Origin: Thermoanaerobaculia bacterium
GTDB lineage: Bacteria > Acidobacteriota > Thermoanaerobaculia > Gp7-AA8
Length of the DNA: 64,000 bases
Reading direction: 5' to 3'
NCBI GenBank assembly: GCA_035688915.1
Contig: DASSMK010000346.1
Coordinates: 25,389 to 89,388 of the forward strand
Made by a program: the position numbers and the translations under genes. Within the stretch, counting starts at the first letter, position 1, and the number at the start of each line of letters is the position of its first letter. The notes below the pieces were generated by a model. The model was not told the origin of the DNA. It searched no databases and was given only the letters and a program-made list of their open reading frames with translations. This document shows positions 10,640-14,879 of this stretch, piece after piece.

Positions 10640-12535
10640 TCACTCGCTCCACAGCCGCACGACGACCACGCCAGCAACCGTTTCCTTCACGGGCTGGTCG
10701 TTCGTTTCGTGGAGTTCCACCGTGAGATAGTTCTGGATGCTGTGACTCTTCGCGTTCTGCGCTTCGATCAGGCGCAGCACTCGGTCGCGACGCTCCATGA
10801 TGCCCTTCGCTTTCGTGCGCACGATCTCTGCGACCGCCGTGCTCTCCGCCGCTGTGGCGAGCTGCTGCCAGAAGTACTGAACGAAGGGCCCGGTGAAGAC
10901 GATGTGCTGCTTCTCGAACGAGGTCTTCGGCTCGACGAGGTACGCGTAGCTGCGGTCCGCGCCGAAGGACGCGAGCACCGCGCGTGCCGTTCCCGCGAGC
11001 GCCGAGATCTCGCCAGCGAGCGGCTCCACGACGCGTGGCGACTTGAGTAGGCCGATCCGACCGACGGTCCCGAAGTACGTCTCTTGAAGCGCCAAGAAGT
11101 GCTCACCCTTCAACCGCCCGATCCACGTCAAGCGCTTCTGGCGCTCGCGCCGCTGGATCGTGCGCGGCGGCATGCCGTCGGGACGCGTGAAGCGCCACTC
11201 AATCTCGTAGTACCGCCCATCCATCGCGAGGATCTGCGGGGCGTCGTTGGGAAACATCGGCGGTCGAACCGTTCCGTGGAGGAGCATCGCGGCTTCAGCT
11301 TTCGGCCCCGTACCATCGCGGTCGATTAGATCGCATGCGCCGGACATTACGGCGATGAGCTCCCTGCCGACGAGTGGCCTGCTCTTAAGTCGCCGTCCGA
11401 CGAGATAAACGTCACCGTGCTGCGGTAAAGGGTTCTCAGATCGTGGCGCAGTGGAGATGCGACCTGCAGCGTACAGTTCAGCGAAGGCGTTCGACGGCGG
11501 CTCAAAGTACGCGGCCAAGCCAGCGAACGGCTTTTCGCCACCGCCCGCCGACGGCGCGCCGTAGGCGTGTGCGACGCGCTCGGCGAGCGCAGCCGCGCTC
11601 AGTTCCTTCACGTAGTCATCGAGGGCCTGCCCCTCGTTCTGGAGGCTCAGATGGTAGAGCCTTCCGAAGTCCGCAATCGTGAGGTTCCGCAGTCGCTCCT
11701 CGACCCATGCGCTGGCCTCCTTGAGTACGGTCGGCCAGGACTGCTGGATCGGTTCGAGGAACGCTGATGCTGCGCACGTTCGGAAGATGTCGCCGATCGC
11801 GAGCAGCTCGTGCGGCTCGTTCGTCGCGAGGGCCTGTTTCGAGATGAAGCGGAATCGGACGGCGAGCTGCTTCGCCGAATCCCGGAAGTCCTCCGCCACA
11901 GCCTGACTCCCTTGCGAGGAGATGAGCACGAACGCCGGCGCTGTGTGGGTAGGATCCGCGTTCGCCACCTCGCGGACTTGGCGGAGGTAGTCGATCGCGC
12001 GCTCGCGCGCCGCGTCGTAGACGCCGACTGGTGTCGCGCCGCTGGCGGCAAAGGGAACAGCGTCGGAGAGGTAGAGGTCGAGGAACACGACATCGGCGCT
12101 TGCGACGCGTTCCGCCGGCGTATCAGAGGCGAAGCGCAGAACAGGCGGCGCGACCGCTTCTAAGAGCTCCTCAAGCGGCCGGAGTTGCGCGAGCTTACTC
12201 TGCCGATCGAGGCTTACGTCGTCGAAGAGGCGCTGCAACGCATCACGCGTCTCTGCCGCGACCGCCACGCCCTCTACGATGCCAAGATGAAGGTCCCATA
12301 GGCGACGCACGCGCATGACGTCCGTCGTGAACCGCTCGTAGTCATCGAGCGTGTCGTCCGAGACGACTGCGTTGAGATCGTTGCGAACCGCGGGCACGTC
12401 TTCAAATGCCTGCACAAACTGGTTAAATGCGTTCTCCGAGATTTCCGCCGGTCGCGGCGGATCGTATGCATCGTCCACGATTGCGAGTCGCTGCACCTTC
12501 CCCGTGTGTGCCGCTTCGATGAGGAAATTAACCAT
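10640..12535 (-). CDS. receiver (REC)-like N-terminal domain protein with an uncharacterised C-terminal domain of about 450 aa; last gene of the Ssp-like operon
   Basis: N-terminal beta1-like LAIVDDAYDPP, beta3-like ADVVFLDLYLSDA, beta4-like APAFVLISSQGSQ and ...FISKQAL resemble CheY-fold landmarks, but with an insert of about 110 aa. The start ATG at 12535 lies 2 nt after the upstream stop (12528-12530). Confidence 0.6.
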   Translation of the reverse strand: MVNFLIEAAHTGKVQRLAIVDDAYDPPRPAEISENAFNQFVQAFEDVPAVRNDLNAVVSDDTLDDYERFTTDVMRVRRLWDLHLGIVEGVAVAAETRDALQRLFDDVSLDRQSKLAQLRPLEELLEAVAPPVLRFASDTPAERVASADVVFLDLYLSDAVPFAASGATPVGVYDAARERAIDYLRQVREVANADPTHTAPAFVLISSQGSQAVAEDFRDSAKQLAVRFRFISKQALATNEPHELLAIGDIFRTCAASAFLEPIQQSWPTVLKEASAWVEERLRNLTIADFGRLYHLSLQNEGQALDDYVKELSAAALAERVAHAYGAPSAGGGEKPFAGLAAYFEPPSNAFAELYAAGRISTAPRSENPLPQHGDVYLVGRRLKSRPLVGRELIAVMSGACDLIDRDGTGPKAEAAMLLHGTVRPPMFPNDAPQILAMDGRYYEIEWRFTRPDGMPPRTIQRRERQKRLTWIGRLKGEHFLALQETYFGTVGRIGLLKSPRVVEPLAGEISALAGTARAVLASFGADRSYAYLVEPKTSFEKQHIVFTGPFVQYFWQQLATAAESTAVAEIVRTKAKGIMERRDRVLRLIEAQNAKSHSIQNYLTVELHETNDQPVKETVAGVVVVRLWSE

Positions 12536-14879
12536 GGGACGTGTGAGGCGCGATGTCGAGGACGAAGGTGTGGAGCGCAACACCGTGGCCACGGCCGGCA
12601 CGCGAGAGCGTTAGCTTCCACCCGTGGTAGTCGCTGAGCTCCCGCGCGATGTATAGGCCCAACCCGCTGCCTTCGCCAGGAGGCTTCAAGGTTACAAAAG
12701 GAAGGAAGATCTCATCCGCGCGCGACGGAGGTACGCCTGGGCCGTTGTCGGTGATTGCGATCGTCTGGTGCTCGCCATCAAGCGTGATGGTGATCCGAGG
12801 CCGGAATCCGGGTTGTGCGACGCGTTGGTACTTCAGCCAGTAGAACGAGTTCGCGAGGAGATTCTCGAGGATCTGGATGAGCATGCCCTTTACGGCACGA
12901 ATGCGCCACGGCTTGTCCGAATCCGCATCGATGCGGACGTCGACCCGATGCCGCGCCGCCTGGGTAGCGCGCGCGTCGACGATCTGCTCCACGACGTCGC
13001 GGACAGCGAACGTCTCTTTGACCTGCCGGCGCGCGGTACTCAGCGGGTCGAGCGTCTGGATCCGCTTCTGCAGTGTCTTTAGTTGCGTCGCGAGCGTGTC
13101 GAAGACGGCGGGCAAGCGTCCCGGCAGTGCGTACGCGTCAACGCTCTCGAGGGTACCGAGCGTGTTCGTCGTGGCGCGACCAAGTTCGTGGAGGATGAGC
13201 TCTACCATCAGCCCGAGGCCTGCGAGGTGGACGAACTTCCGCCGCTCGTCTTTGTAGTCCTCCACGATCTCGTCGACGCCGTCGATTTGCGCGGTGAGCT
13301 GCTGGACGAGCCGCTCCACTTCGCGAAGCGGTTTAGCCTGCTCGGGCGCGTCGGCAGCGATCTGCCGGATCCGCCTCTGCACTTCGGTCTTCGCTGTTAG
13401 CACGCGTTCTTTCAGAACCTCCAACGACGTGAGTTCCTCGCGTTTGAGTTCCTCTTCGATATCGTCGCTGAAGGCCTTGAAGTCTTCGAGGATTCGTTGA
13501 AGGATGAACACAAACGCCGCCTTGTGATCGTTGTCGACGAGTCCCTCGCGGTTCGTCTGCTCCGTAAGGTGGCGGTTGCGCCATGTGAGGTTGACGCGCC
13601 CGATGATCTGCTGCCGATTGAGCTTGTACCCGCGCCGGCCGAACGCCCGTTTGTCGAGTTCCAGCCAATCGTCATCGGGGCCGCCGTACGGCTGGATTCG
13701 GAACTGGTCCCGGAACACCATGAGGCCGCCTCCCCACTGCCGCACGAGGTCCAGCACGTCGTTCCGGGTCCCGAGTCCCTCGATCGCCGTGAGGTGCTTC
13801 CGGTTGAACCAGAGGAACTCGAGGTGGAAGGGTCCGAGCGACCGAAGCACGCTCGGCGACGTCGCTTTCGTGACGGAGAGGAGTTCGACTTCCGAGAGGG
13901 ATACCGGCTTCTTCTTCAGCGTGTGGAGGCGGTAGTCGAAATCGCCGGTCAGGTGCGCATGCCCTTCAGCGTCGTATCCGAGCCGACACGTCACGATCGC
14001 GTGGGCGACTTCGAACAACCGTGCCGCCATTTGCGGCAGCGTAAGTCGCTCGCCGTTGTACATGATGCGGAACAGTCGGTTGGCGCGCCGGCGGTCGAAC
14101 GGGTCGACCATCCGCGCGAACTCCGTTCGAAGGAGCGCGCCGACCTTCCCTCGGTGCCAGTCGCTCCGTAGGTGCGAGATGCGGATCGTCGTACCACTGG
14201 AGGCAGCATCATCCTTGCGCCGGCCACGCTTCGGCGCGACCGGGATCTCTTCGAGGAGCGCGTCCGAGCTGTGGCTGAACTGCCGCCAGTCGATATCGAG
14301 CACGTTCCAGTGCGCCTCACCGGTACGTGACGTCTGGACATGGAGCACCTCGCCGAGGCGCATCGTCGAGAGGCGGCCCACACCCTTGTCGCCGAGGAGG
14401 ACGCGACCAGGTTCAGTGCCTCCGTTCCACGTCTCCTTCTCGTGCCGACGCGACCGCGTCCCGATCGTCAGATAGACGTCATCGAGCTCGCGAAGCGACA
14501 TCCCGTCGCCGTCGTCGCTGATCTCAATGAAGTTCTCGGCGTCGTATGCGGCGTCGAGCGCGCCGCGAACGGCGTCGACGTCGTCACCCGCATCCACGAT
14601 CCGGCGCAGGAACCGGCGACGGGCTTCAGGAGGCACCTCGTCGACGATCCAGCCGGGGAGGAGCTCGCGAAGGCCGTCGAGCGCCGGCTCCTTCGCCGCG
14701 AGCAGCTCGAGCGCCTGCTGGTAGCGCGAGTGCGGGAGGACCGACTGCACCGTAATGCGCACGACCGGGGAGCGCGCATCGACCGCGTTCTTCACGAGTT
14801 CGAACACAGCTGCGGCATCGGAGCCGATCAGCTCCGCGCCGAGTTCGAGCAGCGTCCGGGCCGCGATCCGAAAAGCCAT
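12528..14879 (-). CDS. hybrid ATPase: N-terminal MORC/Hsp90/MutL-type GHKL domain plus a C-terminal histidine-kinase core (DHp H-box and HATPase_c)
   Basis: N-terminal motifs are AVFELVKNAVDA (N-box), IEISDDGDGMSLRELDDVY (G1) and LGDKGVGRLS (G2). The C-terminus has the H-box-like LILHELGRATTNTL, the N-box MLIQILENLLANSFYW, G1 ITDNGPGVP, F IFLPF and G2 GEGSGLGLYIAREL. Confidence 0.75.
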   Translation of the reverse strand: MAFRIAARTLLELGAELIGSDAAAVFELVKNAVDARSPVVRITVQSVLPHSRYQQALELLAAKEPALDGLRELLPGWIVDEVPPEARRRFLRRIVDAGDDVDAVRGALDAAYDAENFIEISDDGDGMSLRELDDVYLTIGTRSRRHEKETWNGGTEPGRVLLGDKGVGRLSTMRLGEVLHVQTSRTGEAHWNVLDIDWRQFSHSSDALLEEIPVAPKRGRRKDDAASSGTTIRISHLRSDWHRGKVGALLRTEFARMVDPFDRRRANRLFRIMYNGERLTLPQMAARLFEVAHAIVTCRLGYDAEGHAHLTGDFDYRLHTLKKKPVSLSEVELLSVTKATSPSVLRSLGPFHLEFLWFNRKHLTAIEGLGTRNDVLDLVRQWGGGLMVFRDQFRIQPYGGPDDDWLELDKRAFGRRGYKLNRQQIIGRVNLTWRNRHLTEQTNREGLVDNDHKAAFVFILQRILEDFKAFSDDIEEELKREELTSLEVLKERVLTAKTEVQRRIRQIAADAPEQAKPLREVERLVQQLTAQIDGVDEIVEDYKDERRKFVHLAGLGLMVELILHELGRATTNTLGTLESVDAYALPGRLPAVFDTLATQLKTLQKRIQTLDPLSTARRQVKETFAVRDVVEQIVDARATQAARHRVDVRIDADSDKPWRIRAVKGMLIQILENLLANSFYWLKYQRVAQPGFRPRITITLDGEHQTIAITDNGPGVPPSRADEIFLPFVTLKPPGEGSGLGLYIARELSDYHGWKLTLSRAGRGHGVALHTFVLDIAPHTSHG

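Follow-up and report, generated by a model that had tools for sequence, protein, structure and literature searches.

What is a histidine kinase with a second, MORC/MutL-like ATPase module doing in a DNA phosphorothioation operon? The question is raised by 64,000 nucleotides of DNA from a Thermoanaerobaculia bacterium (GenBank assembly GCA_035688915.1, contig DASSMK010000346.1, positions 25,389 to 89,388; this entire stretch is referred to below as the window). Here the genes for SspA, SspB, SspC and SspD lie directly upstream of the kinase gene on the same strand, making up a complete SspABCD module in one operon. Directly downstream is a partner gene that an earlier account of the locus, made from the letters of the DNA alone (the sequence-only reading), did not mention. 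Of 2,678 sspBCD loci, 83.9% carry neither SspE nor SspFGH, and further restriction partners have been predicted (PMC8092258). We are inclined to think, with some reservation, that the kinase and its partner (hereafter the pair) form a dedicated cytoplasmic two-component defense arm of SspABCD, acting by restriction or abortive infection in the role that SspE or SspFGH would fill.

The open reading frame on which the sequence-only reading was built is real; it lies on the minus strand, a detail missing from that reading. A protein record identical to its product comes from a metagenome-assembled genome of Thermoanaerobaculia (Acidobacteriota) and is annotated by NCBI as "sensor histidine kinase". 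All eight motifs previously quoted are found at the expected places: ELVKNAVDA (residues 27-35), DDGDGM (122-127) and GDKGVGRLS (163-171) in the N-terminal part; the H-box motif LILHELGRATTN (561-572), whose histidine is H564; and ILENLLANSFYW (670-681), ITDNGPGV (709-716), IFLPF (724-728) and GSGLGLYIAREL (737-748) in the C-terminal part. The domain assignments drawn from them are upheld by profile, structure and conservation tests. Pfam HATPase_c_3 covers residues 115-217 (E = 2.8e-16), so that the N-terminal GHKL motifs are not a chance match, and Pfam HATPase_c covers residues 667-767 (E = 5.7e-21). The claim of an H-box likewise stands: a PDB sequence search aligns residues 523-767 with the DHp and catalytic ATP-binding (CA) domains of ThkA (3a0r, E = 7e-12), placing H564 on the phospho-acceptor histidine, and the DHp and CA domains of ZraS and HK853 align over the same residues with H564 on the catalytic histidine. 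In NCBIfam, residues ~550-770 match dozens of sensor kinases; the Pfam HisKA model does not match the DHp.

The catalytic equipment of both modules is intact. In an AlphaFold2 (AF2) model built from 89 homologues (pLDDT 83.8, pTM 0.79), a GHKL domain (residues ~1-242) is followed by an alpha/beta middle region (~243-447), a run of long helices (~95 residues), a DHp hairpin whose two helices lie at residues 545-609, and a CA domain; the kinase is soluble, no hydrophobic transmembrane segment being evident in the AF2 secondary structure. The GHKL domain carries motifs I (E27/N31/D34), II (D122-G124-G126) and III (G163-K165-G166-G168), then G229-T230, with a helical insert of ~65 residues between motifs I and II. 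The CA domain has all of its boxes: N (Q669/N673/N677), G1 (D711-G713-G715), F (F725/F728) and G2 (G737-G739-G741). Across the 89 homologues, which are 44-69% identical, every one of these residues is invariant, as are K30, H564, E565 and R568; E27 is the GHL-type catalytic glutamate. Such invariance indicates that both nucleotide pockets, both ATP lids and the H-box are intact, as the sequence-only reading had asked. Even in relatives of 22-34% identity most catalytic and nucleotide-binding residues are kept at 90% or more, and H564 and D122 are nearly invariant. With a DHp histidine, the CA boxes and a cognate receiver partner, the C-terminal part has the features of a HisKA-type transmitter and is predicted to autophosphorylate. 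In the model, the ~95-residue helical linker joins the sensor to the DHp and would offer the usual route by which a sensor controls a histidine kinase.

The fusion recurs in other genomes. When the sensor half (residues 1-531) was searched for exhaustively, the matches fell into 206 clusters (50% identity) at E <= 1e-30 and 2,322 at E <= 1e-10, and no alternative outputs were found on the sensor module; as every full-length sensor match has ~770-820 residues, the fusion is fixed. The N-terminal half aligns over ~280-310 residues with the ATPase modules (GHKL plus transducer) of MORC3, MutL, SMCHD1 and MORC2. Its GHKL domain has all four ATP-binding motifs of the MORC family sensu Iyer et al. 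2008, and PADLOC REase_II models match it as well. In the middle region, a strongly conserved block (W382-G384-G385...R394.P397.G399...D403-D404-W405...D409...K419.N421-R422.Q424; as a pattern, GGLMVFRDxFRIxPYG...DDW...D...K419.NR.Q) is similar to the first hairpin seen in the transducer domains of MutL and MORC proteins. The MORC-specific motif GhXhhpXXRhl (PMC2292703) is not matched exactly in the kinase, the nearest segment being G385-LMVFRDQF-R394-I; because its arginine comes one residue late, the sensor module is better called paraMORC-like than MORC in the sense of that paper.

The partner gene, whose ATG lies in the end of the kinase gene (cATGGTTAA), overlaps it by 8 nucleotides, and this points to translational coupling. 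Its product has no Pfam (Response_reg included), NCBIfam, PADLOC or PDB sequence match, and its receiver fold is visible through structure only: a (beta-alpha)5 domain in which an insert stands in place of helix 1. The active-site set D21-D22/D153/S206/K233 is in register with D57, T87 and K109 of CheY and is conserved at 98-100% in 46 partners. The remaining ~390 residues, presumed to be an effector, hold a second group of invariant residues: D289, Y308, G374-D375, C401-(D/E)402-L403, G421, W447, R493, G495 and P500. This region finds nothing in the PDB by Foldseek at E <= 1e-3, and as a profile of its own it matches only partners of the same architecture. No helix-turn-helix or other DNA-binding output is detectable in the partner, nor any nuclease or toxin signature in its effector region. 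With no detectable relatives outside the family, this region is a candidate for a new enzyme or toxin fold. A MazF/CcdB-like barrel was considered as the effector fold and set aside as a weak lead: repeated weak Foldseek matches to MazF had a probability of 0.87-0.97 with TMt of 0.50-0.55 and E = 0.06-0.19, and hhalign against MazF/Kid gave a probability of 2.9%.

Linkage of kinase, partner and sspBCD is near-obligatory. We surveyed 26 distinct loci, 18 of them from close homologues in species-representative genomes and eight from other clades. The sequence-only reading had wondered whether the fusion always sits next to PAPS-reductase and DUF4007 genes; the association holds in 23 of the 26 loci, where the pair adjoins sspB, sspC and sspD, and fails in three (L013, L017 and L034). 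The 23 span at least seven phyla, with hosts among the Alpha- and Gammaproteobacteria, Bacteroidota, Acidobacteriota, Chloroflexota, Planctomycetota, Desulfobacterota and Armatimonadota. In the close set the pair is embedded in the Ssp operon at 16 loci, ten of which have it between sspC and sspD (sspB-sspC-kinase-partner-sspD); seven of the eight further loci, including relatives only 28-31% identical over the sensor, show the order sspB-sspC-sspD-kinase-partner. An open reading frame of 614-712 codons for the partner follows the kinase directly in 16/16 complete loci among L001-L017 (L006 is cut by a contig end), and at L018 the downstream frame has only 445. The loci with precomputed Pfam calls list no DUF262 or DUF1524 gene. 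Cultured carriers of the pair include Rhizobium leguminosarum USDA 2370, Sphingomonas aerolata, Methylorubrum extorquens, Hymenobacter koreensis and Mucilaginibacter corticis.

Several cassettes lie in mobile or defense settings, with Tn7-like genes, type IV secretion systems, an integrase, and STAND or Mrr neighbors, and the pair is often found on mobile elements. At L030/L031 the sspB-sspC-sspD-kinase-partner cassette (4658-14344) adjoins Tn7-like tnsA, tnsB (Mu-transposase C) and tniB/tnsC genes at 1058-4445, with tniQ upstream, and looks like transposon cargo. L034 (1-9976) offers a variant context, in which no sspBCD is in view and the genes ahead of the pair encode a DndH/SspH-like protein of 1831 residues with an FtsK_SpoIIIE domain, an Mrr_cat nuclease and a cysteine desulfurase; two phosphorothioation-linked restriction arms may be combined there. 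At L013 a DruA-domain (Druantia) protein and an IS66 transposase are encoded just downstream of the pair (15805-18299).

Rhodothermaceae, an actinomycete, an alphaproteobacterium and haloarchaea have more distant double-GHKL kinases (23-28% identity). Each of these (L019, L021, L022 and L026) adjoins an N6 or N4 DNA methyltransferase and is followed by a small receiver protein. The L021 receiver scores 34.5 bits against Pfam Response_reg (cut-off 30.2), those of L022 and L026 give weak matches, and L019 and L026 add a protein of the metallo-beta-lactamase (MBL) fold that is similar to MBL effectors of the DRT, Lamassu and PDC-M48 systems. The combination of methyltransferase, double-GHKL kinase and receiver is a distinct, uncatalogued system type of bacteria and haloarchaea, absent from the systems of PADLOC 2.0. 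A recurring theme is therefore apparent, in which a DNA-modification enzyme is joined by a paraMORC-kinase, a receiver and a variable effector.

How might the pair work as a defense arm? One could envision the kinase as a homodimer held together by the four-helix bundle of the DHp. The two N-terminal heads, each a GHKL domain with a putative transducer, would bind and hydrolyze ATP, with E27 as the catalytic residue, and would close as a DNA clamp in the manner of MORC, MutL and GyrB. The state of the clamp would be set presumably by Ssp phosphorothioate marks on the DNA, or by contact with scanning complexes of SspB and SspC, and would be relayed through the helical linker to the DHp. The C-terminal CA domain would then phosphorylate H564, and transfer of the phosphoryl group to D153 of the partner would release or activate the effector domain, which is probably enzymatic, with an active site made of the invariant residues D289, D375, C401-(D/E)402 and R493. 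It is tempting to go one step further and to suggest that the phosphorelay reads the phosphorothioate mark itself, the clamp separating modified self from unmodified foreign DNA and triggering a receiver-gated effector of a fold not seen before. We offer this more specific version tentatively and would not be surprised to see it fail. The direction in which phosphorothioation would control the kinase is, like the chemistry of the effector, something that we infer.

Several observations weigh against a dedicated Ssp defense arm. At L013 and L017 the pair has no Ssp gene nearer than 10 kb, and at L034 none was seen in the 10 kb upstream; the pair may therefore be able to do without Ssp, or its Ssp genes may be unlinked. 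An arginine stands four positions after H564; the usual HisKA phosphatase motif has threonine or asparagine there, and the kinetics of the kinase may consequently be atypical. The term effector is an assumption, since that domain has no recognizable fold or catalytic motif. The idea of the sensor as a DNA- or modification-sensing clamp, already put forward in the sequence-only reading, derives from homology and genomic context. Finally, the interleaving of the pair with modification genes would fit a regulator of modification equally well.

This last point leads to the alternative that survives best, in which the pair would be a regulatory two-component system that tunes phosphorothioation (the activity of SspBCD, the density of modification or the expression of the operon) in a DndB-like fashion, without killing. 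The MORC-like head would monitor modification of the chromosome, and the partner, once phosphorylated, would act by binding or modifying DNA or the Ssp machinery. The location between sspC and sspD in ten loci, inside the modification operon, suits this scheme, as does the known partial and tightly controlled nature of Ssp and Dnd modification (PMC8092258; DndB references in PMC10853773). A control of restriction-modification systems by a kinase and a receiver-like protein was also the speculation of a 2021 paper (PMC8011034). The lack of a nuclease or toxin signature in the partner speaks for a regulator, but the partner has no detectable DNA-binding output either, and its invariant acidic, cysteine and arginine residues look more like an active site. 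Moreover, related kinases are paired with a receiver and MBL-fold effectors typical of defense systems, and L013 and L017 hold no Ssp genes near the pair. Nor is interleaving of restriction and modification genes peculiar to regulators: it is found in other defense operons too, BREX being one. A purely regulatory role thus seems to us unlikely, if worth keeping in mind.

The Ssp-less loci L013 and L017, and L034 with no sspBCD in view, would be easier to rationalize if the pair were an autonomous two-component defense system, sensing a phage cue through its MORC-like head, independent of phosphorothioates and merely traveling with Ssp. The window and related loci are indeed defense or mobile islands, with NB-ARC STAND, Mrr-AAA, DruA-like, HEPN and Tn7 genes, and the distant relatives have other modification partners, namely methyltransferases. 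However, these relatives too are always beside a DNA-modification enzyme. Immediate adjacency to Ssp genes in 23 of the 26 loci, with order and strand conserved down to 28% identity and across at least seven phyla, also speaks against mere co-travel, and chance neighbors in an island would not keep the position between sspC and sspD seen in ten of them. We consider autonomy quite unlikely.

It is highly improbable that there is no phosphorelay at all, the kinase-like part being a dimerization and ATP-binding scaffold of a paraMORC-type restriction-modification ATPase and the partner a docking pseudo-receiver: the DHp and the receiver do go undetected by Pfam HisKA and Response_reg, a large insert replaces receiver helix 1, and pseudo-receivers and pseudo-kinases are common, but very divergent sequences keep H564, all N, G1, F and G2 residues and the receiver quintet DD/D/S/K with little or no variation, which is not expected of pseudo-enzymes, and some methyltransferase-linked relatives retain receivers that Pfam can detect.

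Table 1. Coordinates of the pair, its domains and the Ssp genes in the window, and of the methyltransferase-linked loci (in the numbering of each locus).
Feature	Coordinates	Strand	Remarks
Kinase gene (MORC/MutL-like GHKL ATPase plus histidine-kinase transmitter)	12528..14879	minus	783 aa; ATG start
Kinase residues 1-242, N-terminal GHKL (Bergerat) ATPase domain	14154..14879	minus	motifs I-III, then G229-T230
Kinase residues 243-447, alpha/beta middle region including putative transducer-like domain	13539..14153	minus	
Kinase residues 448-541, long helices, coiled-coil-type linker between sensor and DHp	13257..13538	minus	AF2 secondary structure
Kinase residues 542-612, DHp helical hairpin	13044..13256	minus	H-box H564-E565-L-G-R568; PDB alignment, conservation, AF2 helices
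Kinase residues 613-783, CA domain	12531..13043	minus	
Partner gene, divergent receiver (REC) plus orphan effector region	10640..12535	minus	631 aa; annotated "hypothetical protein"
Partner residues 1-240, REC-fold (beta-alpha)5 domain	11816..12535	minus	~90-residue helical insert replaces helix 1
Partner residues 241-631, presumed effector	10643..11815	minus	helical subdomain 241-358, beta-rich 359-631
SspD, PAPS-reductase-like	14895..15827	minus	PADLOC SspD E = 1.1e-112, residues 47-309; Pfam PAPS_reduct
SspC, BrxC/ORC-type AAA+ ATPase	15703..19233	minus	PADLOC SspC E = 2.4e-249; start uncertain
SspB (DUF4007)	19122..20018	minus	Pfam DUF4007 E = 4.9e-59; PADLOC SspB E = 1.1e-78
SspA, cysteine desulfurase	20015..21307	minus	PADLOC SspA E = 2.2e-136; Pfam Aminotran_5
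Methyltransferase, double-GHKL kinase and small receiver	L019 5541-10682		
Methyltransferase, double-GHKL kinase and small receiver	L026 6903-13544		
Methyltransferase, double-GHKL kinase and small receiver	L021 8613-13682		
Methyltransferase, double-GHKL kinase and small receiver	L022 6544-14014		

As called by program, the SspD and SspC frames overlap by 125 nucleotides and those of SspC and SspB by 112. The PADLOC matches begin at residue 47 of the SspD frame and ~50 of the SspC frame, and homologous SspD proteins have 266-279 residues, so the real sspD and sspC starts are probably downstream of those listed (by ~40 codons for sspD). Elsewhere in the window, a STAND-type protein of 857 residues (6380-8953, minus strand) with NB-ARC and TPR domains, near the AfsR, HaaT and FxSxx-TPR families in NCBIfam, is encoded a short way past the partner gene and may represent a further defense or signaling NTPase of the same island. 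Between the two, on the plus strand, a candidate frame of 402 codons convergent with the partner gene (9410-10618) has no Pfam, PADLOC or NCBIfam match. On the other side of the operon (26497-30204, minus), a protein of 1235 residues with an Mrr_cat restriction-endonuclease domain and an AAA_22/AAA_16 ATPase looks, from its domains, like a separate nuclease-NTPase defense gene. A RepB-type primase domain protein (30685-31527, minus) and a PLD-family protein with two HKD motifs (23569-25020, minus) near the Ssp operon suggest a mobile element or defense island.

Comparison with known systems may help to place the pair. The sensor shares its four-motif GHKL domain and catalytic glutamate with MutL and with the MORC and paraMORC GHKL+S5 ATPases of prokaryotic restriction-modification systems, and it shares with the latter a genomic tie to defense based on DNA modification (Iyer, Abhiman & Aravind 2008, PMC2292703). 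ParaMORC1-5 bear nuclease, TIR or other C-terminal extensions, or are paired with SF2 helicases and nucleases, and a histidine-kinase output, present in the kinase, has been described for none of them (PMC2292703). The best NCBIfam match of the kinase GHKL domain (residues 109-281, E = 3.1e-23) is to the BbrUII/HgiDII type II restriction enzymes (NF050001), a likeness limited to that domain (82 bits; cut-off 550): beyond it, those enzymes have a restriction-enzyme body and the kinase has DHp and CA domains. With a MORC/MutL-class ATPase as the sensor itself, the input logic would be new for histidine kinases; if our reading is true, chromatin ATPase mechanics of the eukaryotic type would be linked to a bacterial phosphorelay.

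SspABCD-SspE and SspABCD-SspFGH have the same modification module as the operon described here, and the pair sits beside or inside sspBCD, where a restriction partner would be expected (PMC8092258). SspE, marked by DUF262 plus DUF1524, is a DUF262 GTPase with a nuclease (PMC9646914, PMC13251355), and SspFGH is made up of a Walker-A SspF, SspG, and an SspH that resembles FtsK/SpoIIIE translocases at its C-terminal end (PMC8092258); unlike the pair, neither has a GHKL, histidine-kinase or receiver domain. No window protein, kinase and partner included, matches PADLOC SspE, SspF, SspG or SspH. SspE, SspFGH and PbeABCD were rejected as identities for the pair, which has no PADLOC match to them and differs from their published domain content. 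We found no Ssp-linked kinase or GHKL partner in the literature, including the BREX type 4 paper and the 2021 paper on two-component elements, and two large surveys comparing phosphorothioation and BREX systems make no mention of a GHKL or kinase partner. The pair is a concrete and widespread candidate for the sspBCD loci without known restriction genes (83.9%, PMC8092258). If it does read the phosphorothioate mark in the way suggested above, it would represent a third mechanistically distinct Ssp restriction arm, explaining part of these ~84% "orphan" loci, and the first case of two-component signaling used directly for epigenetic discrimination of self from non-self.

In signaling logic, the pair resembles Detocs, reportedly described by Rousset and colleagues in 2023, in which a cytoplasmic histidine kinase is said to sense infection and to phosphorylate a receiver fused to a variable effector. 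Detocs reportedly comprises three genes, one for a "buffer" receiver, with a TPR-type sensor and usually a PNP (ATP-nucleosidase) effector, and is said to have no DNA-modification module; the pair, in contrast, has two genes only and comes with such a module. The pair gave no PADLOC match to Detocs, the presence of Detocs models in PADLOC 2.0.0 being unconfirmed.

The closest parallel is with the "two-component-system-like elements" HEF_HK (PF19191) and Response_reg_2 (PF19192), a computational prediction (Bellieny-Rabelo, Pretorius & Moleleki 2021, PMC8011034). Like the kinase, HEF_HK proteins are soluble, with an N-terminal HATPase_c_3, a DHp histidine followed by glutamate, and a C-terminal HATPase_c; they too are tightly linked to a gene for a divergent receiver without other known domain, and to DNA-modification genes. 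HATPase_c_3, DHp and HATPase_c are combined in 174/222 HEF_HK proteins (PMC8011034), so that the sequence-only reading, though right about the fusion, overstated its case in calling two GHKL modules in one protein unusual. Linkage of HEF_HK to Response_reg_2 reaches 91.6% over 644 regions, which are enriched near type II restriction-modification systems, C5-methylases and Vsr; phosphorothioation, ssp and dnd are not mentioned (PMC8011034). No experimental follow-up was found in the literature citing PF19191 or PF19192. The pair is not picked up as a direct member of these Pfam families at E <= 10: the kinase does not match PF19191, nor do 30 partners, or those of L008 and L010, match PF19192. 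Yet five of 26 divergent kinase relatives do match PF19191 (best E = 8.6e-6), one of them (P0273) inside an Ssp cassette, which points to the Ssp-linked clade as a divergent branch of the HEF_HK superfamily lying outside the model. The modification partner differs as well, being SspABCD phosphorothioation for the kinase and a C5 or N6 methylase with Vsr or HNH for HEF_HK; the C5-methyltransferase, Vsr and HNH neighbors of methylase-based systems are not those of the Ssp-linked kinase, and methyltransferases are found only beside the more distant relatives L019, L021, L022 and L026. The architecture of the kinase has by itself no claim to novelty; the new points are that it is systematically built into phosphorothioation operons and that its receiver-effector partner has been identified. 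Should our reading prove true, the pair would provide the first functional handle on the HEF_HK/Response_reg_2 family predicted in 2021.

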